DNA of 64,000 nucleotides, from assembly GCA_000002435.2 (NCBI GenBank), contig CM018789.1, one strand, 5' to 3'. The stretch is from Giardia intestinalis (Eukaryota). How positions within the stretch are numbered: the stretch's first letter is position 1; each line of letters opens with the position of its first letter. The notes beneath the pieces are model-generated. The model saw nothing but the letters and a program-made list of their open reading frames with translations, had not been told where the DNA came from and searched no databases. Both the position numbers and the translations under genes were made by a program. Below, piece after piece: positions 11,403-64,000 of this stretch.

Positions 11403-13577
11403 ATGCACGCTGCTTCGTCTGGATCCGCAACAATAGCTTTCAGTGTCCCACCGTTCACTCTCAGAGGGCTCTACAAGCAACTGAATGACGTGCTTAATGA
11501 AAGTCCCGCGGGAACAGTCTACTCTCTCAAGGATTATCTGGGCCTCGCCGTAAAGGAGGTCCTGCTCGACGGCCTGGACAAGGGGGATCTGGACACCATC
11601 AGACTAGAGCTGGCCACCCTTCTCGACCTCTCCCATCCGGGGGTCCTCAAGCACCATCAAGTGGTCGAGGATGATGACTTCATCTACGTCGTCACGGACC
11701 GCCACGACAAGACTCTCGAGTGCCTCCTCACTGAACACAAGCGAAGGAAGATCCCCGTCCCTATCGCTGTGATTCTCTCCGTCCTGAGGCAGGTCGCTGC
11801 CGCCCTCGCCTATCTCTACGGCCTCAGTGGGATAGGTACTAGGGGGCTCGTCCACCGCGACCTCAGGCCTGCCAATATATTTATCAGCGCAGATGGTGAG
11901 TACTTCGTCATCGCTGGTCTCGGCCTCTGCAGGAACGCCCTGAGAGGCGGGAGCATCACCGCGATAACAAGGCCGTACATGGCCCCCGAGGTGCTCCTCC
12001 ACAACGAGACCAGCCCTGCCTCCGATGTGTGGAGCCTCGGGGTCATCGTCTACGAGCTTACTATTCTGAGGAGACCGGACTTCCTAGAAGGTAAAGACCC
12101 AAAAGACGTCTTCGTTGACGGGTGGAGGCCGAACCTGAGCGGTGTCACCGATGGCTTCATAAAGAGCATTCTGGAAAGGATATTCGTGCTGGAGCCAGAG
12201 AGGAGGCCAACGGCCAAGGGACTGTGCGAGATGCTCGCCACAGCAGACATCCCAGTTAGTGAGCTGGGGCATCGGTGTGTGGCACTAGAAGACAAATGCA
12301 GCGCCTTGGAGGCTGCTTTGAACAGTGCTAATGCTAATATCGTGCTTCTGAAGGACGAGCTCAAGGTCGAGTCGGATAAGGTCACTGCTCTTGAGGCAGC
12401 CCTCGACGCCAGGTCTGCTGAGATTGCCTCTCTAAAGGGCGCTCTTGAGAACAGGCCAAGTGAGGCCGACGCCCTGGGACAGGAGCCCCGACTCAAGACC
12501 ACCAGGATCGACGCGCTTGAAGATCAGTGCAAGGAGTATTTAGCCATGATTAAGGCACTGGAGGATAAGCTTGCACAATCTAGTAGTGGGATGAACACGA
12601 GTAGCCCCCAGATCAACCTCTCCGCGCTGCCTCAACTGATATACGCTGCACACACGAATGACATGGAGACTGTCCAGATGCTGGCCAACGAGAAAGATTG
12701 TATCGGTCAGCGCGACGAGCGGGGGATGACGGCCCTCATGCATGCAGCCCAGCAGGGGCACGGTGGGCCTGTTGAGCTGCTTGTTAAGAAGGAAAAGGGC
12801 CTCAAAGATAAAAACGGCTGGACCGCGCTCATGCACGCCGCACACGGGAACCATCCTGAGGTAGCTAGGATTCTCATCCCTCATGAGCATGGGAGGAAGA
12901 GCAAGAACGGCCGTACTGCTCTGATGATTGCTGCACAGGAGGGCCATGCGGAGGCTGCTTCTGTTCTGGCTCCGTACGAGGAGGACCTGACCGACAGACA
13001 AGGCAACACGGCCCTGATCCTTGCGGCAGAGGCAGGACACGAAGCTGTGGTGGAGGCTCTCGACCCAACCGATGATAGGGGCGTCACAGCGCTCATGCGG
13101 GCCGCGAAAAGAAACGACACATTAGCAGTAAGCGCACTCATACCCGTCCAGAAGAAGCGATTGGCACCTACTGGGACAGCGCTAATACAAGCAGCAATAT
13201 GCGGCCACGTAGCAGCAGTACGACTGCTGATGCCATATGAGAGTAGGGCACGGGATGGTTGTGGTGCGACCGCCCTCATGAAGGCTGCCTCTGAGAATCA
13301 TGCAGAAGTAGTGCAGCTGTTGATGGAGCGCGAAGGCTGCATGCTGGATCCCCATGGCTTACCCGCTATCGTGCACGCAGCGTATGGCGGCCGCTTAGAG
13401 ATAGTGAAGCTGCTATTTGAAAAGGAGGGGCATCTAATAGACAAGTCTAATGAATCCTTCTTTGATAAGCTTGAGGCCAAGGGCTACTCTGAGATAGCAT
13501 CCTTCCTTAGGGACAGCCGTACACCGGGCGCCGATGACTGCAACGATCACCAAGCTGCTCCACGAGCTCACGAGTAA
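11403..13577 (+). CDS. NEK-like kinase with coiled-coil and ankyrin repeats (left inverted-repeat copy; probably catalytically impaired)
   Basis: The kinase domain keeps HRDLRPANIF and APE (YMAPEV) and has the lysine in LAVKEV, but the DFG motif is replaced by AGLGL. It continues into a coiled coil and then about 9 ankyrin repeats. First ATG at 11403; AGTAAAC overlaps the stop (13573..13579). Confidence 0.8.
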   Translation: MHAASSGSATIAFSVPPFTLRGLYKQLNDVLNESPAGTVYSLKDYLGLAVKEVLLDGLDKGDLDTIRLELATLLDLSHPGVLKHHQVVEDDDFIYVVTDRHDKTLECLLTEHKRRKIPVPIAVILSVLRQVAAALAYLYGLSGIGTRGLVHRDLRPANIFISADGEYFVIAGLGLCRNALRGGSITAITRPYMAPEVLLHNETSPASDVWSLGVIVYELTILRRPDFLEGKDPKDVFVDGWRPNLSGVTDGFIKSILERIFVLEPERRPTAKGLCEMLATADIPVSELGHRCVALEDKCSALEAALNSANANIVLLKDELKVESDKVTALEAALDARSAEIASLKGALENRPSEADALGQEPRLKTTRIDALEDQCKEYLAMIKALEDKLAQSSSGMNTSSPQINLSALPQLIYAAHTNDMETVQMLANEKDCIGQRDERGMTALMHAAQQGHGGPVELLVKKEKGLKDKNGWTALMHAAHGNHPEVARILIPHEHGRKSKNGRTALMIAAQEGHAEAASVLAPYEEDLTDRQGNTALILAAEAGHEAVVEALDPTDDRGVTALMRAAKRNDTLAVSALIPVQKKRLAPTGTALIQAAICGHVAAVRLLMPYESRARDGCGATALMKAASENHAEVVQLLMEREGCMLDPHGLPAIVHAAYGGRLEIVKLLFEKEGHLIDKSNESFFDKLEAKGYSEIASFLRDSRTPGADDCNDHQAAPRAHE

Positions 13578-13579
13578 AC
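13573..13579 (+). promoter_or_regulatory. Putative Giardia-type polyadenylation signal (AGTAAAC) overlapping a stop codon
   Basis: AGTRAAY motifs overlap or closely follow the stops of several + strand genes: 1465..1471, 13573..13579, 14494..14500, 20814..20820, 49693..49699, 53429..53435 and 56628..56634. Confidence 0.5.
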
Positions 13580-13739
13580 CCGTCGTTCCCTTCACGAGAA
13601 GCAGAAGGCCCTGGAGAACAGGCCATACGGACCAGCGCCCCATGCTTCTGGCCGTGCCAAAGTGCCATGAAACAGCGTCTCCAAGTTTTCTATCAATTAT
13701 GTCTTATGAAGAGCCGCGATCGCAATTGGGAGGCAAAGA

Positions 13740-14498
13740 ATGGCACTTATTGAGGCGGCCAAGGAGAACAGGCTGGACTACGTCAGGGCCCACAAGGCCG
13801 CGGACGCAGGCCAGAGGGACGCAGACGGGAAGACGGCGCTCATGTGGGCCGCCGAGGCCGGGCACACCGCCGTCGCCCTGGAGCTGGTCGACGCAGAGGC
13901 GGGCCTGGTCTCGAACGACGGGTCCTTCGCGCTGATCGCGGCGGCAAAGAGGGGGAACCTCGAGCTGATCCAGGCCCTTTTCGAGAAGGAGGGGAGGCTG
14001 CGGGACGCCGGCAAGCTCTCCGCCCTCAACCACGCCTCCAAGGCGAAGCAGTTCGAGGCGGCCAAGGTCCTCCGGCTGAAGACCATCGAGACGATGGACG
14101 CGGCGATGCTGGAGCAGCTCCGGCAGAGGGTCGCGGCCACCTACACCGAGATGGCCAAGAAGTCGCAGCAGGCCGAGGTCAAGAGCCACAACATGGCCAT
14201 CTTCCGCTCGTTCTTCGAGGCGTTCTACTTCCTCTCCTGCTCGGGGATCGACCAGGGGGCGGAGATCTCGGAGGAGCAGCTGAACAAGTCCCTCGAGAAG
14301 TGCCTGGGCGAGATCCGCAAGCTCCTCAACTCGAAGAAGTACACGAAGTGCGTGAAGTGCCGCGCCAACGCCCCCAACCTGGTCTGCATGCCGTGCAAGC
14401 ACTACGTCCTCTGCAAGGACTGCGGGAAGGACGTCGCCAGCAAGGTCTGTCCTGCTTGCAACAAGCCGGTCGAGGAGTTCATGGAGGTCTTCAAGTAA
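13740..14498 (+). CDS. Ankyrin-repeat protein with C-terminal RING-type zinc finger (left inverted-repeat copy)
   Basis: Ankyrin repeats (KTALMWAAEAGHTAVALELV...), a coiled linker, then CVKCRANAPNLVCMPCKHYVLCKDCGKDVASKVCPACNKP (C3HC4-like). GC3-rich codons. AGTAAAC overlaps the stop (14494..14500). The antisense and other-frame ORFs in the track here are GC artefacts. Confidence 0.75.
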   Translation: MALIEAAKENRLDYVRAHKAADAGQRDADGKTALMWAAEAGHTAVALELVDAEAGLVSNDGSFALIAAAKRGNLELIQALFEKEGRLRDAGKLSALNHASKAKQFEAAKVLRLKTIETMDAAMLEQLRQRVAATYTEMAKKSQQAEVKSHNMAIFRSFFEAFYFLSCSGIDQGAEISEEQLNKSLEKCLGEIRKLLNSKKYTKCVKCRANAPNLVCMPCKHYVLCKDCGKDVASKVCPACNKPVEEFMEVFK

Positions 14499-14996
14499 AC
14501 GCCAAGAGGTGCTCCACGTCTGCAGATGTCCACCTAGTCGGGGCTCACCAGTAGGATTGCTTTGGCAGCTGCGCCACGAACCACACAGGACAGAGACGCG
14601 GTGATTGGCGCAGCCCCAGAAGGAGCCAGCGGACGCGACCCGTGACAGTCTGACAGGACCAGATTTGTGAAGACGTCTGTCTCTACAAGCCCCTCCACCC
14701 AGCGGCCGTAGCCGAGACCCACCCTGGCCCTCTTTCCCATCAGTCCACCCAGGCAAGGTTTACTGTAGAACCGATGCTTCCCGCTGTTCAGTGTATTTGT
14801 TTGACTAAAGACACGCGGGTCCTTTTCAGATGCGGCTGCAGGACCATCCCGCGTGGAGCTGGGAGAGCGCAACGGCCTCCTCCGCCGCGTACTGCTCCGG
14901 GGCGTCGGCAGGCTGCTCTCGTAGAGCCAGCCGTGGTGGGCCAGCGCCAGCCGTCCTCGCTGCACGGGCTTATGGAGAGCTGGTAGATGAGCTTCG

Positions 14997-16740
14997 TCAG
15001 GTGCTCGCGGAAGGCGGGGAGGCCCTGCAGCTCGAACACCCCGTATATGCGCGAGTAGTCCCCGCCGCGAAGGGCAGTATGTGCTTGGCGATCTTCAGAA
15101 GCACGACGATGGACGAAAGGCTGTTGACCTTGGACAGCTGGTACCCCGGGAAGCTGCACGTGAGCGTGCCCGCCGTGTTCATGTTGGCGGGGCTGTTGGT
15201 GCTATGTCTCCGCGCAGGAACGCCATCAGGTTGGCCAGGTTGTTCGGGATGTACGCCGTCGGCGGCCTGGAGCCCCGCCCGGGACGCTCTGCGCCGCGGC
15301 CCCTGGCTGGCCGCCGTGCTGGAGGGCTGCAGGATGTGCGAGACGTAGCCGTAGAAGCAGCGCGACGCCGTCAGCAGGCAGAACAGCCGCCTGCCGCTCA
15401 CCAGGCTATGAAGGGGCCTCGCGGGGTCTAGCGCCGGGTCCGGCGGGGCGCCCTGCTTGGCGGGCCTGGCCTGCAGGAGGAGAAGGACGTGGAGGCAGCT
15501 CTTCAGCACAGACTCCCGGATGTGCCGCGTGGACGACGGGGTGTTGCTGGAGAACGCGCCCTTCTCGGCGTCCCTCGTCGTGCCCGCAGTCGCCTTGGCC
15601 GACAGGACCGTCTCCAGCATGTGGGGGACCCCACACAGCGCCAGGCGGAGCAGCGACGAGAGGAACGCCGGCATGTCGACCTCCCGGTTCAGGTGGTAGA
15701 GCTGGTGCCCCAGGACGCAGTCGGCCTCGTTGGAAATGCCGACGAGCATCGCCCGCTGGACGTCCAGGGGGAGCGCGTAGGCGAGCACGTTGACCAGCTC
15801 GTGGCACTTGATGCTGCGGAACCGCTCCTCGTGGTGGTTGAAGGACAGCGCCTTCTCTATGCACCGCTCGAAGTAGGGCAGATTGCCCTTCGCACCCGGC
15901 CTCCCCGAGAACGGGAAGGACGCGGTCAGCCCCCGCTTGACCCTGTTGAGGTACACGCGGTAGTCGCCGGTGGCCACCGCGTTGCCGAGGGTGCGCTCCA
16001 GCTCGGCGTCGTGCCCGCCGTGGAGGTCTGCCAGGGACTGCAGGCCGATCCGCACGTCCGGCCCGGGCGCCGCCTGTTGGGCTGGGGGCGTTGAAGGCCG
16101 TCATGACGCTTGCACACTCTGCCATCTGGTCTGCGACGCCCTTGTCGGCGTAGGGGAGACGTTGCCGGACGAGAAGGGGGCGGAAGCCGCTCGACGGTCT
16201 CGATCGCGCAGGACCCGGCGCTGCCCTGCTCCTCCAGGGCCATCCTGCGGATGCTCCGGCACGTCCGGGCCTGCTTGTGGCCGCCCAGGGGCCCAGGAGG
16301 AGGAGGAGCGCCTGCCTGGATCAGCTTGGAGAGCAGGCGCGCAAGGGCTGGACCAGGGCCCTGACGAAGCCTTCGAAGGTGCGGAGGCAGGGCAAGCAGT
16401 CGACCGAGCCGTCCAGGCGGTCGCAGACGGTGACCCCCCGCAGGTTCAGGGAGGCCAGCACAAGGTGCAGGACCTGGATGCAGTGGGCCAGGGGAGGCGG
16501 GAGCTGCTTGCTTGCGTTCTGCGTCGACTCCGCCCTCAGGTCCGAGAGGGAGGCCGCGCACTCGCCGGGACGCCGAACCGCTTGAGGACCTGCCTGAAAA
16601 GGGAGCCGCCGTTGTGGAGGAAGAGGAGGAGCGCCCGCCTCGCCTCGTCGGCGCCCATCTCGTCCTCGAAGAGCGAGAGGAACGACTCGCTGAGCTCGTA
16701 GATCGCCGGCTCCACGTCCGACCACACGACCGGGAGCGGG
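14997..16740 (-). pseudogene. GC-rich gene of unknown function, split over three reading frames (possible pseudogene or frameshifted gene; left copy)
   Basis: Protein-like segments occur on the minus strand in three frames (16727..16536 WSDVEPAIYELSESFLSLFEDEMGADEA...; 16563..16321 ...ASKQLPPPLAHCIQVLHLVLASLNLRGVTVC...; 16055..14997 MRIGLQSLADLHGG...352 aa). This implies at least 2 frameshifts, and both are also present in the right copy. Confidence 0.35.
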
Positions 16741-18325
16741 GCGGTCGTCCGGTTCTAGTCCAGGCTTCCGTCCCCCATGTTTGCGGTTTCATGGCCCGCG
16801 CGGCCCTCTGCCCCAATCCATAGGGCCATGGGCTTGAGCAGACGAGCGCTGCCCATTCATCCTCTACTATACGTTTCCACGGATGGCACCGTTCGCGGCA
16901 GGGGCACTGAAGCCTCAGGCGTTCCTCTCTGCCAACAACCATGAACTACGGTAAGGTCCTGACTAGGCTGGAAGGCGCTCTGGCGGTGGCACGGGCAACT
17001 GCTAGACCCGCCCGCATCGGCCTCTGGTCATGAAGGCGAGCTGGCCCTTCCTTGGTGTGTCCTCCATACTAGTGGGACTTGCCGCGCTTCCCCCTCACGT
17101 GCAGCCAAAGGCCATGGCCGACGTCCGCACTGGTCATATAGCCGACCTCCGCGACTCTGGTGGCAGCGTGCTTGCTCGCTTATTCCACGAGGCATGGGCA
17201 TGGTAGTTACCGGCCTTGCTGCACAGCTCTTGACGGCGCCTTCCAGCCATTGCATCGGCCAGCTGTGCTACTTACAAGAAGCTCGCGCGCGTTCCCAACG
17301 TTGCAGCAACGCACGCTTGATCCCCGGCGGTGATTACTTTCATTAGTGGTGGTGCCCGCTCCGTCTCTAATCTGGTGTCGAACACACCAAGGATGATAGC
17401 GGCGCCACTCACGTTGCCGACGACTGCTTTATCCTGGCTTCTCAGATTGAAGGAGTGCTCTTGCTGGGCGTGGGCTCCCACGCTCCCCTTCATGGCCTCC
17501 TGGCCCTGTGCAATCTCTTCCTGGAAAAACGATATGCTGCTGTGCGCGATGTCGTGCACGGCATGTCGCCGAAGCAATAGCAGGGCTGCGCAATCATGCA
17601 TCCACTTGGTGGGCTACATGACTTGGCCCGCCATGCTTCTCTGTGCCTTCTTGTCAGTGCTAAGCGGGCACCCTTACGACGGCCAGCGCCTATGCGGCTG
17701 CGTGTCTATTCAGCGTATTTGCTCGCGTCATTATCGATTTACCGTACTTGGTCTCCTCATTGAGCTCTGCAATTGTCAGCTGCCACAGAGCGAGGCAGGT
17801 TCTTACTCTGCCCGAGGGCGATTATTGTGGGAAGCTCCATGCAAAGAACGACTCCACAGCGGCTCAGTTTGTTATATGGACAGCTGGCAACCCGAGTTGT
17901 TCGTGGGGGAGACAGTGCCACAGACACATACCCTCTTCTCTCAATTCTAACAAGCAATCTTACAAGACCAGGAACAGAAGATTGCTGTCCATGAGGGCGG
18001 CTCTAAACTGCTCGGCGCATACAATGCACTCGAGAAGAGGCCTCCTGAAGATGTGCTGGTAGGCGCGGAATCGGACGGTCCGATCGAGACGCCGTCCCTG
18101 GCAGCCGCTGGTTCTCCTAGGGGCGACGAGCCCCATGCCCCCGATGGACTCCTACTTCCAAAGCCCCAGCCGGCAACGCCTGATGCCTCCAGGTGCTCCT
18201 CTCAAACTGACAGATTAAGGAAGTACTATGTTGAGCTAGCAGCCATGCATAGGCAGATTACCGTACTTCAGTCTTCCGTACGCGAATCAGAGACAGAGTG
18301 CGTGCCAGTTCTTAGATCCTTGTAG

Positions 18326-20800
18326 TTTAGTATTCCTAGGGGGTGCCTGGTTGGGGTGGGGGGCTGTGTTGGCTCCGGGAAGTCGAGCTTCCTATTGGCT
18401 ATTCTGGGAGAGGTGGCCCTTTCGACATCAAGTAGTTCGGATTCCGCTCATATACACTCGGTGGGCCGTATTGCATACTGCTCGCAGGTGCCGTCCGTGT
18501 TTACAGGGACCATACAGTTCAATATCCAGTTATTCTTACCCTATGATGAAGAGAAAATGCAGCTTGCAACTCGACTCTCCTGTCTGGATGGGGACCTTTC
18601 TGAACTACCAGGGGGGCTTGCCACACTTGTTGGCAGCCGCGGTGTGACACTGTCTGGAGGACAGAAAGCTCGATTATCAATTGCCAGGGCCATCTACTCC
18701 GACGCGGATATTTACTTGTTTGATGATCCGTTCGCCTCTCTGGACTCTCATGTTTGCAAGTCGTTATGGAGCGAGACCATCAAAGGGTATCTACTTGCAA
18801 GGGGGAAGACCGTTGTGTTGGCGACCAATCAGATGCATTACTTTCGTTCGTGCTTAAAGGTGCTATTTATAGATGCTGGCACGATCAAAGAAGTGACACC
18901 AGAGAGCGTAGATATAGACTGTTCTCCTCTGCCCGTCGCAGAAGTCCTCTCACTGACCTCTATACAGGCTGTAGAGAAACACGACTCTGACTATCAAGTG
19001 CATCGAATGGCAGCAGTGCTTAAGGAGGAGAAATGCACGGAGCTGGGATCTGTTAATTCTAAATATTACAAGCTATGGTTCAAGGCAGGCGGGACCTGGA
19101 GATTCGTCATTTATGTTGTCATGTGGGTCTTCTGTATACTTATGTTGCAACTGGCGTCGCTGCTCATCAACTTCTGGACCGAACAGCGGCTAGGGCTGAG
19201 CACAGGTGGTTGCATAGGTCTGTTCTTGTCGTTCTCCTTTGCATTTATGGTGATCCTCTTCGTTGGGCAGCTCTTCTATATGCTGTTCACACGGAAGGCG
19301 GCAGAGAAGCTGTACTACAGCATGGAAGAGGGGCTTATCAATACATCGATGTCGTTCTATGACGCACACCCCATTGGACGGATCCTTAACCGCCTGATAG
19401 CAGACACAGGTACATGTGATTTGACGGTGAAGAATGGCCTAGCAGCGACATGTGAGAACTCCATCTTTGTGCTGGGTTCATTACTGGCCACTTTGCTGAT
19501 GAGCTGGCCATCTACGTTTGTGCTAGTTCCCTTGCTGGGACTGTTCCTTTGGATGTTCATGGGATTTCGTGCTGTGTCGCCCCTCTTGCGACGCACCACC
19601 TCCCTCTTGAATAGCCATGTGTGTAACTTTATTCTAGACACATACTACAACCTGGCATCTCTTAGAGCGTATAGGTATGAAGCCCAGGCGGCAAGCTACT
19701 ACGCCAGAGCCGTCCTAGCTATGGAGGCGGCATTTTGGATGGATGTTTCCCTCTACAGATGGCTACACTTTACAACTACCCTTCTATCTATCTGTGTGTC
19801 CGCAGTAGTTACTGTGTCCACTATCATAACGTCTTCTTTTGCTAACGGAGAGATATTTTCAGGTACCGTACTCATGAATGGCTTTGATGTTGTCATGATG
19901 TTAATAGATATGTGCTTCGGGATTGTTGCAATGGATCTTTCTATGGCCAGCGTGGAGAGGGTAGCAGAGTACGCTACTCTTGAACCAGAGAGTACAAGCG
20001 CTCCGCATAGCCCAAGTAGCTTGCCGGCAGACTCTACTCTCGGGCTTATTGTGCAAGATCTTTCGCTACGCTATCAACAGCATTTGCCAGTTGTGCTTCA
20101 TGGGATCTCATTCACAGCGGCCAAGGGAGAGCGCGTTGCAATCATAGGAAAGACAGGGTCTGGCAAGTCATCCCTTGTCAATGCGATTCTCAGACTTGTC
20201 GAGCCAGAGGCGGGCTCTGAGATTCTCTTGAATGGCCTGAACCTGCTGAAGATGGGCTTACATCAGGCACGGTCTAAGGTGACGCTGATACCACAGGATC
20301 CTTTTATTTTCTCCGGGACACTGCGAGCCTATCTCTCCGGGGATAGACGGTTCTCAGATGAGGAGCTGTGGCGTGTCTTGGAGAAGACGCACTTGCGTGA
20401 ATACTTCGCAGCTCAGTCAAAGCAACTTGACTACCACCTTTTTGATAACGGCAGCAACCTTTCGCTCGGACAGCGACAGCTTCTGTGCGTAGCCCACGCG
20501 CTGCTCAGAGACACAGAAGTCATCCTATTGGACGAGGTAACAGCACACGTAGATAGTGCCGCAGAGGCGGCTATTCAGGATGCCCTGGGGGCATATAAGG
20601 AGCAAAAGATCATTATTACGATAGCCCATAGACTCCGCACTGTTTGCAACCAGGATAGGGTTATTGTTATGGCCGGTGGTCAAATAGTCGAGCAGGGTCC
20701 TCCACGCGTGCTGTTTCACAAGCCTGACAGTATCTTTGCCAATATGGTAAGGTGTTCGGTAGATTCGGAAGACCTCGTCGATTTTCTTACGTCGATGTGA
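18326..20800 (+). CDS. ABCC/MRP-type ABC transporter, 5'-truncated (NBD1-TMD2-NBD2 only); possible pseudogene
   Basis: Walker A (GGCVGSGKSS) lies at the very start, followed by LSGGQKARLSIARAIY...DADIYLFDDPFASLD (signature and Walker B), about 6 TM helices, a second Walker A (GKTGSGKSS) and a second signature (LSLGQRQLL...ILLDEVTAHVD). Homology to MRP NBD1 (ITV...PVLRSL*FSIPRG) continues upstream across an in-frame TAG at 18323 to about 18260. No TMD1 is encoded upstream, where the inverted-repeat arm begins at 18209. Confidence 0.8.
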   Translation, partial: FSIPRGCLVGVGGCVGSGKSSFLLAILGEVALSTSSSSDSAHIHSVGRIAYCSQVPSVFTGTIQFNIQLFLPYDEEKMQLATRLSCLDGDLSELPGGLATLVGSRGVTLSGGQKARLSIARAIYSDADIYLFDDPFASLDSHVCKSLWSETIKGYLLARGKTVVLATNQMHYFRSCLKVLFIDAGTIKEVTPESVDIDCSPLPVAEVLSLTSIQAVEKHDSDYQVHRMAAVLKEEKCTELGSVNSKYYKLWFKAGGTWRFVIYVVMWVFCILMLQLASLLINFWTEQRLGLSTGGCIGLFLSFSFAFMVILFVGQLFYMLFTRKAAEKLYYSMEEGLINTSMSFYDAHPIGRILNRLIADTGTCDLTVKNGLAATCENSIFVLGSLLATLLMSWPSTFVLVPLLGLFLWMFMGFRAVSPLLRRTTSLLNSHVCNFILDTYYNLASLRAYRYEAQAASYYARAVLAMEAAFWMDVSLYRWLHFTTTLLSICVSAVVTVSTIITSSFANGEIFSGTVLMNGFDVVMMLIDMCFGIVAMDLSMASVERVAEYATLEPESTSAPHSPSSLPADSTLGLIVQDLSLRYQQHLPVVLHGISFTAAKGERVAIIGKTGSGKSSLVNAILRLVEPEAGSEILLNGLNLLKMGLHQARSKVTLIPQDPFIFSGTLRAYLSGDRRFSDEELWRVLEKTHLREYFAAQSKQLDYHLFDNGSNLSLGQRQLLCVAHALLRDTEVILLDEVTAHVDSAAEAAIQDALGAYKEQKIIITIAHRLRTVCNQDRVIVMAGGQIVEQGPPRVLFHKPDSIFANMVRCSVDSEDLVDFLTSM

Positions 20801-20933
20801 ATTAGCATATGCTAGTAAATCCACAGAGCGCTTGCGTAGACAGGTAGCAGGGCGATCGACACCCCGCAGAAACGAGTCTTTTGCGGTCAGTGACACCTAA
20901 ATTGTTGGATTGAGGCTCTGTCATAATAAAAGC

Positions 20934-21761
20934 ATGTGTGGATTGGAAAACAACATGGAGGCCAAGCAGAGGGCGAAGCGTCTCAAGGGATACATGATAC
21001 GGTATGACAAGCTTGCAAGGCAGCGCACACGACTTATGGACCACACCGAGCGTCTCGCAGACAGCCGCGTATCCGTGGACGAAGAGACACAGACTCGGGC
21101 GTCCTCGGCCGAGACATCCTTGCATGTACTATACCTGGATGGGCATGGAAACATCTGCCCCACCGTCCCGGTGCAGCCAGGGCTGCCAAGGTGGGTGTCT
21201 CTGCGCGTGAACTCCTGTGCCTCTCTTCTTCTATCGGTTCACAACATCGTAGTCAGGTCGGAGCTTGCCGCACGCTGTGAGACTAACGACGCCGCCGATC
21301 GCATTCTTACCAGAATCCAGACAAACCACGGACCTTCCGTCCAGATCCCCAACGAGTGCATCGTGCTCTGTCCCCCGCCGCCCCTCTTTCTTGAGTCCTT
21401 GCACTATCTCCTGGTGAAACTGCAGCTCTGCACGGCGCCGGTCCCAGGTGCTGACTCCCGAGTGGTCGGCGAGGTTGCGGCCCGCCCATTTACATTCAGC
21501 AGGAATATGACACATAAGGATCGTCAGTTTACACAAATATCCGACACCTACCCAATCGTCCTCGATTCGGAGGTTGTTGGAAGCCTGTGCTTGCGACTGG
21601 AAATGCTTTCGCACGACCATACAATCGAGACCACGCGTCACTTCACGGTAGACTGCTCCAGTCTTAATAGGCCCAATCAGAAAGAAAAACGAAGACTGAT
21701 AGGCGCACAGACACAGACAACTGGATATCTCACTTCGACCTTAGAGGAAAGGCGGCTGTAA
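20934..21761 (+). CDS. Hypothetical protein (weak call)
   Basis: Longest ORF in this interval; first ATG at 20934 (alternative at 20955); no recognisable domains; a competing antisense ORF lies at 21231..21641. Confidence 0.25.
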   Translation: MCGLENNMEAKQRAKRLKGYMIRYDKLARQRTRLMDHTERLADSRVSVDEETQTRASSAETSLHVLYLDGHGNICPTVPVQPGLPRWVSLRVNSCASLLLSVHNIVVRSELAARCETNDAADRILTRIQTNHGPSVQIPNECIVLCPPPPLFLESLHYLLVKLQLCTAPVPGADSRVVGEVAARPFTFSRNMTHKDRQFTQISDTYPIVLDSEVVGSLCLRLEMLSHDHTIETTRHFTVDCSSLNRPNQKEKRRLIGAQTQTTGYLTSTLEERRL

Positions 21762-21788
21762 AGGCTATGACGGCAGAGCTATAACAGC

Positions 21789-22328
21789 TCAGGTGGAGCC
21801 GAACTCCGCTGTGAACTTCGCTATGCGCGACTTGTCAGCTTGGGAGACGCTCGACTTCACGGCTGCCTTGGCACGCAACAGGCTACTCACAGTGACATAG
21901 GGAACCGTCAGCTTATCGTTGGGAATATCCATAAAGTCTTTCTTCTCAGCGCCGGGCATGTCTGATGCTGAAACCTCGTACATGCCTGTGATCTTATTGA
22001 GGCGGAAGTAGGACACCTTCTGCAACACGCGCACGGGGTCCATGAGAGCTTCCTTGCACAATATGCTGAGGTCAGAGCCAGAGTAGTTCTCTGTTTGCTG
22101 TCCGAGCTCAGTGATATCCTCATCTGCTAGCACATTGGGCGTAGTGCCGATGCAATTCTTTATGATATTTGCTCTGGCAGCGGCGTCTGGGAGGACGATC
22201 TCGATGCGCTTCTCGAAGCGGCGGCGGATCTCCACCCAGGCCCCCTTGAACGGCAACTGTGCGGCCAATCCACGAGCAGCTTTCTGTGCAACAATCACAA
22301 GTGGGGCCTGTACACAATGCAATGAGGG
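21789..22328 (-). pseudogene. VPS4-like AAA ATPase, C-terminal fragment only
   Basis: ...VEIRRRFEKRIEIVLPDAAARANIIKNCIGTTPNVLADEDITELGQQTENYSGSDLSILCKEALMDPVRVLQKV...AKFTAEFGST aligns with the VPS4 C-terminal region from RRFEKRIYIPLP to the end. There is an in-frame stop at 22331..22329 and no Walker A/B or MIT region upstream. Confidence 0.7.
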
Positions 22329-22779
22329 TTACTTCCTCAAGGACGGCGGCTGCTATCAGACAGATAGACAGCCTGGTAAGCAGGTCTGTAGTAGTGCACA
22401 GGGAGGAACATGTCAGACGTGTGCCAACGGACTGCAGGTACAAAGTGGGGCCTGTGGGGAGTGCCACTCTACTTGTGCTACGTGCTCGACTGCAGATGAC
22501 CCTAATAAGTGTAAGACCTGTGCCACTGGGTATTACAAGACAAGCGATAATGATGGCCCGTGCATGAAGTGCTCTGAGGGGCTCGCTGGGTGCAGACAGT
22601 GCACAGCGTCATCCACCGATGCGTTCATGTGCCTCGAGATGGGCGATGGCACTGGCGACAACACCGGGGGAAGCACCAACAAGAGCAGCCTCAGCACTGG
22701 CGCCATCGCGGGGATCTCCGTCGCTGTGATTGTCGTTGTGGGGGGCCTTGTGGGCTTTCTCTGCAGGAGAGAGACGTAG
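22285..22779 (+). pseudogene. VSP / high-cysteine membrane protein-like C-terminal fragment
   Basis: CxxC-rich sequence with a GGCY motif (CTQCNEGYFLKDGGCY, CQTCANG, CATCSTADDPNKCKTCATGYYKT) and the conserved VSP transmembrane helix STGAIAGISVAVIVVVGGLVGFLC. The tail is CRRET* instead of canonical CRGKA. There is no signal peptide or N-terminal region; the 5' part of the track ORF (22111..22284) is the antisense of the VPS4 fragment. Confidence 0.65.
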
Positions 22780-56602: not shown

Positions 56603-59229
56603 TCAACGTAGACTGCAAAGTTGTCCAAGTAAATCCCCCTCGCGAGTCGCTGCACTGGACTGGCTACCTCTCGCTCGCTCCCATCAAAGTCCAGAATCTG
56701 AAACTCAAATGTCAGCCAACTCCGATGGAAGAAGAACTCTTATGCTTCGTCTCCCCAGGAAGCCGCTGCTCCTCACGTTACCTCTAAGGTTTCTCCCATC
56801 CTCTGGCTAGCTTGGAGCAACCACCACCTGGCACCGGTGGGCACCTGCTGTCTCGAGCCTTGCGTCGGTCACAGCAGTCTGGCCTCGAGAGCAATTGACT
56901 CTGGCCATGTACTCCGGAGTAGCTTTGTAGTGTTGGTGCTCTACGACAAAGATCACACGCCACGGCCCCGGGTGCCTACCCCGTTCCTCGGGGTGCCTCT
57001 TCGTCTCTTCGTGGAGGGCACCATCTGTTCCATTATCAAGGGTGCGATTCCCGTACGCCTCTATCTTGGAATCATAGTACGCGTTCGTGGATGTCGATGG
57101 AGTACTCCCATGCGCTGGTATCAGGGGAGAGGCCCATCCCTCTGCTCATGGATCGCAGAGGTGCTCCGTCACCCAGCACGAGACCGCGTCGACGCTCACC
57201 CTGTGCAGTGCGTCTGGCTCAGTGATGTGTGAGCTGGTCCATCTGCACAGCACACTTGGGGTGATGCTTCGGTCTGTCGAGGCGTCGTCCAAAGCACCAG
57301 GAGCAATCAGGACCGGTTCGCTGTCAGGTCGTCTCTCTACAATCGGCACTCGTCTACTCGAGGGTGTCAGGCACTGCCAGCTGCTGCGGCAGATGCTCGG
57401 CAGGTGGCCCAGGCCGCCACTCTCCGGTGCGGGCAGGATCAGTCCGCTTCTACCAACCAGACACCCCAACTCCTATTTCTTGCCGAGGGATTCATATGGG
57501 TCACGTGTGGGTCCGTCTCGACAAGCGGGGCGAGTGATTGGTGCCATTGCCAGCCTCGGACGCTCATCTGCATTCGCTATCACCTCGAGGGAGGGGGCAT
57601 AAATCTTCCCCGTCAGAACTGGACGACATCCGACTTTCGGATTCTGGGTCTCAGCTAGTGAACGAGCGAGAGACTGCCAGCCTGGGGCGGCGGTGGCTCG
57701 CATGGAGGACCTGTTCAGGCAACAGCTGACAAACTAGTCTCAGTGCAATAAGGTAACTGGCTAGTTTGAGAGGAGCACCTGGAGGCATCAGGCGTTGCCG
57801 GCTGGGGCTTTGGAAGTAGGAGTCCATCGGGGGCATGGGGCTCGTCGCCCCTAGGAGAACCAGCGGCTGCCAGGGACGGCGTCTCGATCGGACCGTCCGA
57901 TTCCGCACCTACCAGCACATCTTCAGGAGGCCTCTTCTCGAGTGCATTGTATGCGCCGAGCAGTTTAGAGCCGCCCTCATGGACAGCAATCTTCTGTTCC
58001 TGGTCTTGTAAGATTGCTTGTTAGAATTGAGAGAAGAGGGTATGTGTCTGTGGCACTGTCTCCCCCACGAACAACTCGGGTTGCCAGCTGTCCATATAAC
58101 AAACTGAGCCGCTGTGGAGTCGTTCTTTGCATGGAGCTTCCCACAATAATCGCCCTCGGGCAGAGTAAGAACCTGCCTCGCTCTGTGGCAGCTGACAATT
58201 GCAGAGCTCAATGAGGAGACCAAGTACGGTAAATCGATAATGACGCGAGCAAATACGCTGAATAGACACGCAGCCGCATAGGCGCTGGCCGTCGTAAGGG
58301 TGCCCGCTTAGCACTGACAAGAAGGCACAGAGAAGCATGGCGGGCCAAGTCATGTAGCCCACCAAGTGGATGCATGATCGCGCAAGGGTCATCCTTCCCA
58401 CGTATATGAGCTCTTGACGCCTACGTGGGTGCATTCGACTCCTGCACAGCTCCTGATAATTATAGGCCTTTATCACCCGTAGCCCTGCTATTACTTCGGT
58501 GACATGCCGTGCACGGACATCGCGCGCAGCAGCATATCGTTTTTCCAGGAAGGGATTGCACAGGGCCAGGAGGCCATGAAGGGGAGCGTGGGAGCCCACG
58601 CCCAGCAAGAGCACTCCTTCAATCTGAGAAGCCAGGATAAAGCAGTCGTCGGCAACGTGAGTGGCGCCGCTATCATCCTTGGTGTGTTCGACACCAGATT
58701 AGAGACGGAGCGGGCACCACCACTAATGAAAGTAATCACCGCCGGGGATCAAGCGTGCGTTGCTGCAACGTTGGGAACGCGCGCGAGCTTCTTGTAAGTA
58801 GCACAGCTGGCCGATGCAATGGCTGGAAGGCGCCGTCAAGAGCTGTGCAGCAAGGCCGGTAACTACCATGCCCATGCCTCGTGGAATAAGCGAGCAAGCA
58901 CGCTGCCACCAGAGTCGCGGAGGTCGGCTATATGACCAGTGCGGACGTCGGCCATGGCCTTTGGCTGCACGTGAGGGGGAAGCGCGGCAAGTCCCACTAG
59001 TATGGAGGACACACCAAGGAAGGGCCAGCTCGCCTTCATGACCAGAGGCCGATGCGGGCGGGTCTAGCAGTTGCCCGTGCCACCGCCAGAGCGCCTTCCA
59101 GCCTAGTCAGGACCTTACCGTAGTTCATGGTTGTTGGCAGAGAGGAACGCCTGAGGCTTCAGTGCCCCTGCCGCGAACGGTGCCATCCGTGGAAACGTAT
59201 AGTAGAGGATGAATGGGCAGCGCTCGTCT

Positions 59230-60960
59230 GCTCAAGCCCATGGCCCTATGGATTGGGGCAGAGGGCCGCGCGGGCCATGAAACCGCAAACATGGGGGACG
59301 GAAGCCTGGACTGGAACCGGACGACCGCCCCGCTCCCGGTCGTGTGGTCGGACGTGGAGCCGGCGATCTACGAGCTCAGCGAGTCGTTCCTCTCGCTCTT
59401 CGAGGACGAGATGGGCGCCGACGAGGCGAGGTGGACGCTCCTCCTCTTCCTCCACAACGGCGGCTCCCTTTTCAGGCGGGTCCTCAAGCGGTTCGGCGTC
59501 CCGGCGAGTGCGCGGCCTCCCTCTCGGACCTGAGGGCGGAGTCGACGCAGAACGCAAGCAAGCAGCTCCCGCCTCCCCTGGCCCACTGCATCCAGGTCCT
59601 GCACCTTGTGCTGGCCTCCCTGAACCTGCGGGGGGTCACCGTCTGCGACCGCCTGGACGGCTCGGTCGACTGCTTGCCCTGCCTCCGCACCTTCGAAGGC
59701 TTCGTCAGGGCCCTGGTTCAGCCCTTGCGCGCCTGCTCTCCAAGCTGATCCAGGCAGGCGCTCCTCCTCCTCCTGGGCCCCTGGGCGGCCACAAGCAGGC
59801 CCGGACGTGCCGGAGCATCCGCAGGATGGCCCTGGAGGAGCAGGGCAGCGCCGGGTCCTGCGCGATCGAGACCGTCGAGTGGCTTCCGCCCCCTTCTCGT
59901 CCGGCAACGTCTCCCCTACGCCGACAAGGGCGTCGCAGACCAGATGGCAGAGTGTGCAAGCGTCATGACGGCCTTCAACGCCCCCAGCCCAACAGGCGGC
60001 GCCCGGGCCGGACGTGCGGATCGGCCTGCAGTCCCTGGCAGACCTCCACGGCGGGCACGACGCCGAGCTGGAGCGCACCCTCGGCAACGCGGTGGCCACC
60101 GGCGACTACCGCGTGTACCTCAACAGGGTCAAGCGGGGGCTGACCGCGTCCTTCCCGTTCTCGGGGAGGCCGGGTGCGAAGGGCAATCTGCCCTACTTCG
60201 AGCGGTGCATAGAGAAGGCGCTGTCCTTCAACCACCACGAGGAGCGGTTCCGCAGCATCAAGTGCCACGAGCTGGTCAACGTGCTCGCCTACGCGCTCCC
60301 CCTGGACGTCCAGCGGGCGATGCTCGTCGGCATTTCCAACGAGGCCGACTGCGTCCTGGGGCACCAGCTCTACCACCTGATCCGAGAGGTCGACATGCCG
60401 GCGTTCCTCTCGTCGCTGCTCCGCCTGGCGCTGTGCGGGGTCCCCCACATGCTCGAGACGGTCCTGTCGGCCAAGGCGGCTGCGGGCACGACGAGGGACG
60501 CCGAGAAGGGCGCGTTCTCCAGCAACACCCCGTCGTCCACGCGGCACATCCGGGAGTCTGTGCTGAAGAGCTGCCTCCACGTCCTTCTCCTCCTGCAGGC
60601 CAGGCCCGCCAAGCAGGGCGCCCCGCCGGACCCGGCGCTAGACCCCGCGAGGCCCCTTCATAGCCTGGTGAGCGGCAGGCGGCTGCTCTGCCTGCTGACG
60701 GCGTCGCGCTGCTTCTACGGCTACGTCTCGCACATCCTGCAGTCCTCCAGCACGGCGGCCAGCCAGGGGCCGCGGCGCAGAGCGTCCCGGGCGGGGCTCC
60801 AGGCCGCCGACGGCGTACATCCCGAACAACCTGGCCAACCTGATGGAGTTCCTGCGCGGAGACAATAGCACCAACAACCCCGCCAACATAAGCACGGCGG
60901 GCACGCTCACGTGCAGCTTCCCGGGGTACCAGCTGTCCAAGGTCAACAGCCTTTCGTCCA
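59230..60960 (+). pseudogene. Right-arm copy of the GC-rich frameshifted gene
   Basis: It has the same protein-like segments as 14997..16740 (-). It shares the two upstream frameshifts with the left copy and has an additional copy-specific frameshift (...GVPARRQ* followed by ...NNPANISTAGTLTC in another frame, against contiguous ...GVPARRHSTNSPANMNTAGTLTC in the left copy). Confidence 0.35.
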
Positions 60961-61571
60961 TCGTCGTGCTTCTGAAGATCGCCAAGCACATACTGCCCTT
61001 CGCGGCGGGGACTACTCGCGCATATACGGGGTGTTCGAGCTGCAGGGCCTCCCCGCCTTCCGCGAGCACCTGACGAAGCTCATCTACCAGCTCTCCATAA
61101 GCCCGTGCAGCGAGGACGGCTGGCGCTGGCCCACCACGGCTGGCTCTACGAGAGCAGCCTGCCGACGCCCCGGAGCAGTACGCGGCGGAGGAGGCCGTTG
61201 CGCTCTCCCAGCTCCACGCGGGATGGTCCTGCAGCCGCATCTGAAAAGGACCCGCGTGTCTTTAGTCAAACAAATACACTGAACAGCGGGAAGCATCGGT
61301 TCTACAGTAAACCTTGCCTGGGTGGACTGATGGGAAAGAGGGCCAGGGTGGGTCTCGGCTACGGCCGCTGGGTGGAGGGGCTTGTAGAGACAGACGTCTT
61401 CACAAATCTGGTCCTGTCAGACTGTCACGGGTCGCGTCCGCTGGCTCCTTCTGGGGCTGCGCCAATCACCGCGTCTCTGTCCTGTGTGGTTCGTGGCGCA
61501 GCTGCCAAAGCAATCCTACTGGTGAGCCCCGACTAGGTGGACATCTGCAGACGTGGAGCACCTCTTGGCGT

Positions 61572-62330
61572 TTACTTGAAGACCTCCATGAACTCCTCGA
61601 CCGGCTTGTTGCAAGCACGACAGACCTTGCTGGCGACGTCCTTCCCGCAGTCCTTGCAGAGGACGTAGTGCTTGCACGGCATGCAGACCAGGTTGGGGGC
61701 GTTGGCGCGGCACTTCACGCACTTCGTGTACTTCTTCGAGTTGAGGAGCTTGCGGATCTCGCCCAGGCACTTCTCGAGGGACTTGTTCAGCTGCTCCTCC
61801 GAGATCTCCGCCCCCTGGTCGATCCCCGAGCAGGAGAGGGAGTAGAACGCCTCGAAGAACGAGCGGAAGATGGCCATGTTGTGGCTCTTGACCTCGGCCT
61901 GCTGCGACTTCTTGGCCATCTCGGTGTAGGTGGCCGCGACCCTCTGCCGGAGCTGCTCCAGCATCGCCGCGTCCATCGTCTCGATGGTCTTCAGCCGGAG
62001 GACCTTGGCCGCCTCGAACTGCTTCGCCTTGGAGGCGTGGTTGAGGGCGGAGAGCTTGCCGGCGTCCCGCAGCCTCCCCTCCTTCTCGAAAAGGGCCTGG
62101 ATCAGCTCGAGGTTCCCCCTCTTTGCCGCCGCGATCAGCGCGAAGGACCCGTCGTTCGAGACCAGGCCCGCCTCTGCGTCGACCAGCTCCAGGGCGACGG
62201 CGGTGTGCCCGGCCTCGGCGGCCCACATGAGCGCCGTCTTCCCGTCTGCGTCCCTCTGGCCTGCGTCCGCGGCCTTGTGGGCCCTGACGTAGTCCAGCCT
62301 GTTCTCCTTGGCCGCCTCAATAAGTGCCAT
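61572..62330 (-). CDS. Ankyrin-repeat + RING-finger protein (right inverted-repeat copy)
   Basis: 252 aa, differing from 13740..14498 at about 2 positions (YSLSCSG against YFLSCSG; KVCRACNKP against KVCPACNKP). Confidence 0.75.
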   Translation of the reverse strand: MALIEAAKENRLDYVRAHKAADAGQRDADGKTALMWAAEAGHTAVALELVDAEAGLVSNDGSFALIAAAKRGNLELIQALFEKEGRLRDAGKLSALNHASKAKQFEAAKVLRLKTIETMDAAMLEQLRQRVAATYTEMAKKSQQAEVKSHNMAIFRSFFEAFYSLSCSGIDQGAEISEEQLNKSLEKCLGEIRKLLNSKKYTKCVKCRANAPNLVCMPCKHYVLCKDCGKDVASKVCRACNKPVEEFMEVFK

Positions 62331-62492
62331 TCTTTGCCTCCCAATTGCGATCGCGGCTCTTCATAAGACATAATTGATAGAAAACTTGGAGACGCTGTTT
62401 CATGGCACTTTGGCACGGCCAGAAGCATGGGGCGCTGGTCCGTATGGCCTGTTCTCCAGGGCCTTCTGCTTCTCGTGAAGGGAACGACGGGT

Positions 62493-64000
62493 TTACTCGT
62501 GAGCTCGTGGAGCAGCTTGGTGATCGTTGCAGTCATCGGCGCCCGGTGTACGGCTGTCCCTAAGGAAGGATGCTATCTCAGAGTAGCCCTTGGCCTCAAG
62601 CTTATCAAAGAAGGATTCATTAGACTTGTCTATTAGATGCCCCTCCTTTTCAAATAGCAGCTTCACTATCTCTAAGCGGCCGCCATACGCTGCGTGCACG
62701 ATAGCGGGTAAGCCATGGGGATCCAGCATGCAGCCTTCGCGCTCCATCAACAGCTGCACTACTTCTGCATGATTCTCAGAGGCAGCCTTCATGAGGGCGG
62801 TCGCACCACAACCATCCCGTGCCCTACTCTCATATGGCATCAGCAGTCGTACTGCTGCTACGTGGCCGCATATTGCTGCTTGTATTAGCGCTGTCCCAGT
62901 AGGTGCCAATCGCTTCTTCTGGACGGGTATGAGTGCGCTTACTGCTAATGTGTCGTTTCTTTTCGCGGCCCGCATGAGCGCTGTGACGCCCCTATCATCG
63001 GTTGGGTCGAGAGCCTCCACCACAGCTTCGTGTCCTGCCTCTGCCGCAAGGATCAGGGCCGTGTTGCCTTGTCTGTCGGTCAGGTCCTCCTCGTACGGAG
63101 CCAGAACAGAAGCAGCCTCCGCATGGCCCTCCTGTGCAGCAATCATCAGAGCAGTACGGCCGTTCTTGCTCTTCCTCCCATGCTCATGAGGGATGAGAAT
63201 CCTAGCTACCTCAGGATGGTTCCCGTGTGCGGCGTGCATGAGCGCGGTCCAGCCGTTTTTATCTTTGAGACCCTTCTCCTTCTCAACAAGCAGCTTGACA
63301 GGACCAATGTGCCCCTGCTGGGCCGCGTGCATGAGGGCCGTCATCCCCCGCTCGTCGCGCTGACCGATACAATCTTTCTCGTTGGCCAGCATCTGGACAG
63401 TCTCCATGTCATTCGTGTGTGCAGCGTATATCAGTTGAGGCAGCGCGGAGAGGTTGATCTGGGGGCTACTCGTGTTCATCCCACTACTAGATTGTGCAAG
63501 CTTATCCTCCAGTGCCTTAATCATGGCTAAATACTCCTTGCACTGATCTTCAAGCGCGTCGATCCTGGTGGTCTTGAGTCGGGGCTCCTGTCCCAGGGCG
63601 TCGGCCTCACTTGGCCTGTTCTCAAGAGCGCCCTTTAGAGAGGCAATCTCAGCAGACCTGGCGTCGAGGGCTGCCTCAAGAGCAGTGACCTTATCCGACT
63701 CGACCTTGAGCTCGTCCTTCAGAAGCACGATATTAGCATTAGCACTGTTCAAAGCAGCCTCCAAGGCGCTGCATTTGTCTTCTAGTGCCACACACCGATG
63801 CCCCAGCTCACTAACTGGGATTTCTGCTGTGGCGAGCGTCTCGTGCAGCTCCCTGGCCGTCGGCCTCCTCTCTGGCTCCAGCACGAATATCCTTTCCAGA
63901 ATGCTCTTTATGAAGCCATCAGTGACACCGCTCAGGTTCGGCCTCCACCCGTCAACGAAGACGTCTTTTGGGTCTTTACCTTCTAGGAAGTCCGGTCTCC
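62493..64000 (-). CDS. NEK-like kinase/ankyrin protein (right inverted-repeat copy, 5' end beyond window)
   Basis: Stop at 62493; near-identical to the C-terminal 500 or so residues of 11403..13577 (a few substitutions, for example QQGHIGPVKLLVEKEKG against QQGHGGPVELLVKKEKG). The kinase domain start lies beyond position 64000. Confidence 0.75.
   Translation of the reverse strand, partial: RPDFLEGKDPKDVFVDGWRPNLSGVTDGFIKSILERIFVLEPERRPTARELHETLATAEIPVSELGHRCVALEDKCSALEAALNSANANIVLLKDELKVESDKVTALEAALDARSAEIASLKGALENRPSEADALGQEPRLKTTRIDALEDQCKEYLAMIKALEDKLAQSSSGMNTSSPQINLSALPQLIYAAHTNDMETVQMLANEKDCIGQRDERGMTALMHAAQQGHIGPVKLLVEKEKGLKDKNGWTALMHAAHGNHPEVARILIPHEHGRKSKNGRTALMIAAQEGHAEAASVLAPYEEDLTDRQGNTALILAAEAGHEAVVEALDPTDDRGVTALMRAAKRNDTLAVSALIPVQKKRLAPTGTALIQAAICGHVAAVRLLMPYESRARDGCGATALMKAASENHAEVVQLLMEREGCMLDPHGLPAIVHAAYGGRLEIVKLLFEKEGHLIDKSNESFFDKLEAKGYSEIASFLRDSRTPGADDCNDHQAAPRAHE

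Follow-up and report, generated by a model that had tools for sequence, protein, structure and literature searches.

The DNA analysed here (the window, a single strand of 64,000 nucleotides (nt) from Giardia intestinalis) holds at 16.8–20.8 kb what is probably a paralogous duplicate, in the course of decay, of a gene for a full transporter of the "short" ABCC/MRP type. The intact form of this gene encodes 1403 amino acids (aa) with two transmembrane domains (TMD) and two nucleotide-binding domains (NBD) in the order TMD1-NBD1-TMD2-NBD2; the copy in the window would be a mosaic, with a decayed relic at its 5' end and a 3' part kept by recent gene conversion. TMD1 was evidently lost by decay in place, through frameshifts, stops and GC-biased substitution, and not cut off by the inverted-repeat junction that runs through the gene. 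Nine long open reading frames (ORFs) of the window match exactly proteins of G. intestinalis WB clone C6 (ATCC 50803), all of them on one 1,485,438-bp contig within KAE8301227–KAE8301249, a range that includes a NEK kinase, glutamate-cysteine ligase, kinesin-14, MCM5 and MYST2.

The transporter gene continues across the repeat junction

The 5' part of the copy lies in one arm of an inverted repeat:

12070..18208, no strand: left arm of the inverted repeat (repeat search and arm-to-arm alignment)
57763..64000, no strand: right arm of the inverted repeat, running off the window (repeat search and arm alignment)

The repeat search returned one inverted repeat in three blocks (12070–15205/60865–64000, 15205–17553/58516–60864 and 17587–18208/57763–58384), bracketing a segment of 39.5 kb. 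Arm-to-arm alignment gave 46 substitutions, two 1-nt indels and one 97-nt indel, an identity of 99–100% over at least 6.1 kb; since the right arm runs off the window, this length is a minimum and the true outer end lies outside view. Arm similarity drops off sharply at 18208/18209 and 57763/57762, so that the inner edge stands where a preliminary reading of the letters alone (the sequence-only reading) had placed it. That reading had also held that recognisable ABC homology begins only at about 18260, that no TMD1 is encoded upstream and that the junction truncates the gene.

Comparison with full-length relatives gave a different picture. Of the relatives that carry a name, the best is a Giardia P15 (assemblage E) protein of 1403 aa listed as "ABC transporter, putative", and further Giardia-like relatives have 1404–1411 aa; orthologues are therefore full-length and include TMD1, as the sequence-only reading had expected. 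By tblastn, P15 residues 16–1403 were placed on 16811–20797, well upstream of 18260, with a second, partial copy at 59258–57754 on the minus strand. The DNA of the P15 locus (contig L001) is colinear with 15495–22229 straight over the repeat edge, and an intact assemblage-A paralogue aligns base for base over 16.8–20.8 kb. Because the P15 orthologue is colinear over the junction from about 16800 to 20797, TMD1 must have been encoded upstream, inside the arm. Stretches of it can be recognised upstream of 18053 at nearly every position (ERCPFILYYTF, LVMK-SWPF, HIADLRDS, VITFISGGARS-SNLVSN-PRMIA), broken in the P15 alignment by stops, deletions and changes of frame.

The lesions were mapped against the intact assemblage-A (AI-type) gene on Logan contigs L005/L006 (P0380, P0381; 1403 aa), which has no indels relative to P15:

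16787..18001, plus strand: relic of the 5' part of the ABC gene, TMD1, codons ~13–470 (P15 protein alignment; indel map against L005)
17586/17587, plus strand: 97-nt deletion, codons 299–331, left arm only
17661..17999, plus strand: out-of-frame stretch between a 2-nt and a 4-nt deletion, with a stop at 17948–17950 inside
18002..18322, plus strand: in-frame TMD1-NBD1 linker and start of NBD1, codons 472–578 (alignment)
57763..59285, minus strand: right-arm ABC relic, codons ~13–541, stopping at the repeat junction

Relative to L005, the left arm carries 13 frameshifting indels and 2 in-frame deletions, every one of them within codons 23–470. The right arm has all but two of these indels as well, and the AII scaffold L002 has most of them. 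The 97-nt sequence is kept in the right arm, L002, L003, L005 and P15. Of the two lesions that bound the out-of-frame stretch, the 2-nt deletion (17661, codon 356) is present in all decayed copies and the 4-nt deletion (17999, codon 470) in AI/WB-type copies only; AII copies, being free of the latter, have ORFs that reach 937–1018 aa. Nothing intact is left of the ancestral start codon and promoter region.

The idea that the repeat junction cut off TMD1, leaving a gene that begins at NBD1 with no TMD1 coding sequence before it, draws on two observations: the raw ORFs 5' of 18053 have no Pfam match as they stand, and the edge at 18208 lies near the point where generic MRP homology becomes plain. 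We consider this explanation very improbable, and for the left copy the colinear alignments refute it. Homology to full-length Giardia orthologues is unbroken over 18208 back to about 16800, and P15, DH (assemblage AII), L002 and L003 are all colinear through the left junction. The upstream stretch is unreadable as an ORF on account of the frameshifting indels and stops, not because TMD1 is absent. Once frame-corrected, the translation of the left-arm relic still had 2 stops; a version with right-arm sequence supplied for the missing 97 nt matched PF00664 (ABC_membrane) with an E value of 2.7e-6 and a score of 27.7 bits, the cut-off being 28. A protein search with codons 1–545 of L005, covering the intact TMD1, returned no scored matches. 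TMD1, as a six-helix ABC_membrane domain, is accordingly present as a relic and not as an ORF.

Truncation by the junction thus holds for the right-arm fragment (57763–59285) only, and the left copy is continuous across 18208. Two parts of the sequence-only reading stood: a duplication breakpoint does fall inside the ABC gene, 18208/18209 corresponding to codon 541 in the TMD1-NBD1 linker, and the gene is older than the repeat, as the P15 gene is intact and colinear over the breakpoint.

A nonsense codon precedes a readable 3' part

The 3' part of the copy consists of the following:

18323..18325, plus strand: TAG nonsense codon, codon 579 of 1403, in frame with the ABC frame
18356..20800, plus strand: 814-codon ORF with NBD1 from Walker A, TMD2 and NBD2 (ORF list, Pfam)
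20814..20819, plus strand: AGTAAA, candidate polyadenylation signal, 14 nt past the TGA stop (sequence)

The 814 stop-free codons noted earlier were verified, and Pfam assigned two ABC_tran domains and one ABC_membrane domain to them; in an 824-aa translation PF00664 lies at residues 265–518 and PF00005 at 591–740. TMD2 and NBD2 are intact, the latter with its Walker A (GKTGSGKSS), signature (LSLGQRQ), Walker B (ILLDE, with the canonical LLDE) and H-loop (AHR) motifs. For NBD1, Walker A, Q-loop, signature and an ABCC-type Walker B (DDPFASLD) are all present in the DNA, but they are not united in one translated product: the TAG stands 15 codons ahead of Walker A, and the first ATG (18557) lies downstream of both Walker A and the Q-loop. 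The closest relatives by sequence are ABCC proteins, and the closest solved structures, for the 3' part as for the intact 1403-aa paralogue and orthologue, are ABCC4, ABCC2 and MRP1 (E ~1e-130). AGTAAA matches the Giardia polyadenylation-signal consensus.

In the reference annotation 18557–20800 is a 747-aa "Xenobiotic-transporting ATPase" (XP_001706041.2/KAE8301233.1, an exact match). This protein begins at the first ATG downstream of the TAG and has no NBD1 Walker A; judged by its sequence, it is most likely a non-functional remnant. No literature was found on the accession, the locus tags or the name "Xenobiotic-transporting ATPase" in connection with Giardia.

The TAG itself is real. Codon 579 is CAG (Gln) in P15, DH, L002, L003, L005, L006 and L008, and among the copies examined T at 18323 occurs only in the window and in L007-type contigs. 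An ORF identical to the 814 aa of the window was found in 29 Logan contigs, with near-identical variants in more than 20 others, and the TAG recurs in at least 29 independent assemblies, which disposes of a sequencing error; TAG-free forms of 915 aa exist on an otherwise WB-like background. From this spread and these TAG-free forms we conclude that AI-type genomes are polymorphic for a genuine TAG of recent origin. Compared with the intact copy, the WB haplotype carries Gln579-to-stop and four missense changes in the NBD1 region (L>S, L>F, L>F, P>L), which fall within residues 79–299 of the 915-aa frame. Decoding of TAG as Gln, as in hexamitid diplomonads, was considered and rejected: Giardia uses the standard genetic code, and the other ORFs of the window end normally.

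Recent gene conversion probably accounts for the open frame

The window copy diverges from the intact AI paralogue to a degree that changes abruptly along the coding sequence (CDS). In 150-nt bins the divergence is mostly 10–43% over CDS 1–900, about zero at CDS 901–1050, 5–10% at CDS 1051–1500 and at most 1.3% from CDS 1501 onward. Over the 2796 nt of 18002–20797 the two copies differ at 15 positions (0.5%; 6 synonymous and 9 non-synonymous), compared with about 50–60 differing sites between AI and AII copies in the same span. Paralogues within a sub-assemblage are therefore closer than orthologues between sub-assemblages, as expected of concerted evolution by gene conversion. Recent conversion with the intact paralogue explains the 814 open codons better than selection does, and an open frame explained by homogenisation is no evidence that the copy is used. 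The sequence-only reading had taken the long frame to suggest a recent disruption or a still-expressed truncated product; homogenisation of a paralogous duplicate fits better than the first of these, which had assumed a single copy.

A smaller patch of the same kind lies within the relic. In the right arm, 58330–58481 (CDS 901–1050) belongs to a patch of ~150–235 nt that is identical to the intact paralogue within a relic that is otherwise 10–22% diverged; from the alignment, the intact copy seems to have been the donor of a small conversion tract here. The 97-nt deletion of the left arm falls inside this patch.

Several observations weigh against a decaying copy. First, the ratio of non-synonymous to synonymous substitution (dN/dS) of the 3' part, 0.21 against P15, is 0.29–0.55 within assemblage A, relaxed values that stay below one, rest on small counts and are confounded by conversion with the paralogue, so that some constraint, direct or borrowed via conversion, is possible. 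Second, AII copies keep ORFs of 937–1018 aa, in both genomic contexts. Third, the poly(A)-like AGTAAA is retained downstream of the stop, and the reference lists the gene as coding. Lastly, the state of the paralogue in WB (see below) is read from short-read contigs that may be chimeric.

The first three points, along with the 814-codon frame and its intact TMD2 and NBD2 motifs, would also fit a functional, expressed truncated transporter kept by selection and acting like a half-transporter or a regulatory ATPase: in WB a partial NBD1-TMD2-NBD2 protein from the ATG at 18557, in AII an NBD1-TMD2-NBD2 protein of 937–1018 aa. We regard this as unlikely. The open frame is accounted for by the 15-nt divergence from the intact paralogue, the ancestral start and promoter region are gone, and the NBD1 region of the WB haplotype has acquired one nonsense and four missense changes. 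An ATG-initiated product would be without the NBD1 Walker A and Q-loop, and we know of no functional ABCC protein with an NBD1-TMD2-NBD2 architecture. A degenerating duplicate, homogenised in its 3' part, is the reading we prefer.

GC-biased substitution is confined to the decayed part

The arm interior is rich in GC. The window at 13.8–17.7 kb has a GC content of 59–72%, compared with 41–53% in orthologous P15 DNA, and the GC-rich stretch at 13800–17700 is mirrored at 58300–62200. When substitutions were polarised on sites where P15 and the intact paralogue agree, relic codons 1–470 showed 110 AT-to-GC and 21 GC-to-AT changes (~5:1), while codons 471–1403 showed 6 and 5, respectively. The intact paralogue's own changes run in the opposite direction (24 GC-to-AT vs 5 AT-to-GC). 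GC-biased gene conversion in the arms would be expected to shift composition in just this way, and we infer such conversion from these substitution counts. Ribosomal DNA was also considered for the GC-rich stretch at 14–18 kb and ruled out, as nothing in the entire window matched an Rfam family at gathering thresholds.

The copy belongs to a duplicated segment that ends inside Vps4a

The genes on either side of the transporter copy were duplicated with it:

15495..16790, minus strand: relic of the divergent upstream neighbour, a homologue of P15 GLP15_3774 (686 aa) (tblastn)
20934..21761, plus strand: 275-aa gene GL50803_00137692 (KAE8301234.1), a duplicate of GL50803_00137699 from which it differs at 6 residues
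21789..22229, minus strand: C-terminal fragment of Vps4a, with AAA_lid_3 and Vps4_C only
22303..22779, plus strand: 3' fragment of a VSP gene, directly at the duplication boundary (PF03302, E 3.7e-36)

The ancestral block, carried by P15 and DH, reads 686-aa gene, ABC gene, 275-aa gene, Vps4a. The order ABC gene, 275–309-aa gene, full-length Vps4a (454 aa) and methyltransferase is found in P15, in DH (AHGT01000062; L004/L010) and on scaffold L002, and the 4,018,654-bp contig of WB carries the methyltransferase (KAE8305544), Vps4a (KAE8305545) and the 275-aa gene (KAE8305546, GL50803_00137699). In the window the series breaks off at 22229, with the last 146 residues of Vps4a left; P15, DH and L002 cease to be colinear at the same position, which is thus the right end of the duplicated segment, inside Vps4a. 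Right of the boundary come the VSP 3' fragment and then glutamate-cysteine ligase. Co-duplication of the 275-aa gene, the Vps4a 3' end and the relic of the upstream neighbour points to a segmental origin and not to retroposition. The transporter copy bears three marks of a duplicated pseudogene: an intact paralogue elsewhere (P15, AI-type L005/L006), disabling mutations relative to the parent and co-duplicated flanking genes.

The GLP15_3774 relic is colinear with P15 and is spread in pieces over frames -1/-3/-2/-1, with internal stops and deletions; two head-to-head genes, this homologue and TMD1 of the ABC gene, have decayed together in the arm interior. At the other end of the segment, 22229 sits in the conserved RRRFEKRIEIVLPDAAAR region of Vps4a. 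On an AII-like metagenome contig (L009, 8292–9836) the N-terminal part of Vps4a runs, at this very position, into a Vps4b-like C-terminus (514 aa), which suggests, from the sequence of the join, recombination between Vps4 paralogues at the boundary site. An inversion read from P15 L001 6168–6647 against window 22764–22303 was rejected, the sequence being a conserved VSP 3' end.

That the repeat, the TAG or the join at 22229 is an artefact of assembly or sequencing in the WB long-read assembly might be suspected, since the region is repeated in the genome and short-read contigs break at 17.5, 20.8–21.2 and 22.2 kb. The probability of this is negligible in our view: each join was reproduced independently, and the TAG-bearing ORF is identical in its 29 Logan contigs. 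Contig L015 of DH runs from MYST2 over 57763 into the right arm, and the AII-like metagenome contig L003 spans both 18208 and 22229 and continues into glutamate-cysteine ligase, reproducing the gene order of the window. Two opposed arms of high identity, seen in these independent assemblies, make up a real inverted duplication, and its presence in L003 and DH indicates that the arrangement predates the AI/AII split.

In assemblage A, a second copy of the ancestral block, ending in Vps4a at 22229, adjoins the block from glutamate-cysteine ligase to MYST2 on the 1.485-Mb contig. The outer part of this copy, up to ABC codon 541, recurs in inverted orientation beyond the 39.5-kb block, and these two stretches are the arms. 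The following history would account for the locus. The relics of the ABC 5' end and of the upstream neighbour would have decayed once selection was lost, with GC-biased conversion between the arms shifting their composition, while from about 18108 onward recent gene conversion would have kept the copy nearly identical to its paralogue. WB-type genomes would later have gained the 4-nt deletion at codon 470 and the CAG>TAG change at codon 579.

The ancestral locus of WB may have been disabled in turn

Ten contigs from ten sequencing runs (SRR3602117, 118, 127, 130; SRR10662873, 874, 875, 877, 878, 887) share one structure, an undecayed TMD1 to about CDS 1100 followed by the -2, -4 and TAG lesions of the window. 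Their middle part is within 1–5 nt of the window over 17587–20826 or 17587–21221. The 275-aa gene is the ancestral-locus variant in the five of the ten that are long enough to include it. Several of them break at 20826 or 21221 or start at the arm-identical patch, and all that reach the end stop at 22202, a pattern expected if two loci share their middle and branch apart on both sides; the tract common to the two loci measures ~3.3–3.6 kb. No 1403-aa protein from WB was present in the protein cluster searched. As far as these short-read contigs can be trusted, chimeras being possible, WB is probably without an intact copy of the ABCC gene and carries lesions in both loci. On the AII scaffold L002, a fully decayed TMD1 stands in the ancestral context.

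A more tentative idea, which we hold to be possible though not the likelier outcome, is that the arm copy, decayed and enriched in GC, serves as a donor of ectopic gene conversion and in this way puts the ancestral ABCC gene, on the other WB contig, out of action step by step. It derives from the at least ten WB-like read sets that join an undecayed TMD1 to the -2, -4 and TAG lesions and the ancestral 275-aa variant, and from the decayed TMD1 in the ancestral context of one AII scaffold. If true, it would provide a concrete, phased example of pseudogene-driven gene death with GC-biased conversion in a putatively asexual Giardia lineage, in which isolates hold an intact (L005-type), half-converted (L007-type) or fully converted (AII) copy.

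Other rearrangements around the repeat

Several other features of the region were observed. First, on the right side colinearity with P15 stops just past MYST2, at 56605, and the following 1.16 kb between MYST2 and the right arm (56606–57762) is present in DH; it has no Pfam match, and P15, in which MYST2 is followed by IFT20-like and other genes, has nothing that corresponds to it. Second, the P15 orthologue of the 744-aa NEK kinase at 1510–3744 (L014, 19717–21263) lies ~8.4 kb right of MYST2; in WB the same kinase lies left of the left arm, its relative orientation unchanged, so that assemblages E and A differ in the arrangement of this region by more than the repeat. Third, the differences between the arms bunch at 12209–12248 and 12743–12800 (mirrored at 63861–63822 and 63327–63270), with 8 and 10 substitutions, both in the ankyrin-repeat part of a NEK gene; by their sequence these patches are typical of small conversion patches from other ankyrin/NEK paralogues. 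Lastly, the reference contains two similar "Ankyrin repeat protein 1" genes, KAE8301230 (222 aa) left of 12070, in the region of 10200–11096, and KAE8301252 (246 aa), presumably past 64000. Paired genes outside the visible arms suggest that the arms probably exceed 6.1 kb.

Significance and comparison with known systems

The locus is probably a duplicated pseudogene of an ordinary kind, and it illustrates neatly how conversion can drive mosaic decay. The phenomena behind it are familiar, so that the result serves chiefly as a correction: the "Xenobiotic-transporting ATPase" of the WB annotation should be listed as a 5'-decayed, nonsense-bearing duplicate, which avoids over-counting transporters in a genome whose ABC/MRP genes are routinely looked at in drug-resistance studies. 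Reads and peptides are not uniquely assignable over 17.6–20.8 kb, because WB-like short-read contigs with the flanks of the other locus match the window within 1–5 nt. The locus also offers a compact natural series of intact, partly converted and fully decayed copies for the study of ectopic conversion, GC-biased substitution and pseudogenisation in assemblage A. According to the WB genome paper, duplicated sequence makes up 6.9% of the genome and duplications of several genes span up to 20 kb; the ABC locus is not mentioned there (PMC7000408).

Among known transporters, the intact 1403-aa Giardia gene and the 3' part of the window copy resemble the short ABCC/MRP full transporters (ABCC4/MRP4-like, with no TMD0), and the parent gene is ABCC4-like. 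The window copy differs in having no readable TMD1, no start codon and a nonsense codon before the NBD1 Walker A, and as it stands it therefore cannot encode a full transporter.

A parallel exists in humans, where gene conversion takes place between ABCC6 and its pseudogenes. ABCC6 is flanked by the pseudogenes ABCC6P1 and ABCC6P2 (PMC3434077). These are truncated ABCC copies, holding the 5' part of the gene, that segmental duplication placed near or around their parent, with enough similarity left for sequence exchange; the Giardia right-arm fragment, which has codons ~13–541 only, is comparable. In Giardia, however, the whole-length duplicate is itself 5'-decayed, the copies form an inverted repeat around 39.5 kb of unrelated genes, and the parent locus is on another WB contig.

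The arms of primate Y-chromosome palindromes are homogenised by GC-biased gene conversion. The Giardia arms are similar in being 99–100% identical to each other yet far from the orthologue, with the ~5:1 AT-to-GC excess confined to the arm-borne part. They differ in that the bias is read from substitution counts and that AII copies with a possible location outside the arms (L002) are GC-rich too. Finally, a 2025 population study of Giardia describes premature-stop alleles of five genes in AI and not in AII, as well as GC-enriched genes with tracts of gene conversion whose median length is 3.3 kb (PMC12669663); the pattern resembles the one described here, where the TAG is of AI type only and the two loci have a tract of ~3.3–3.6 kb in common.

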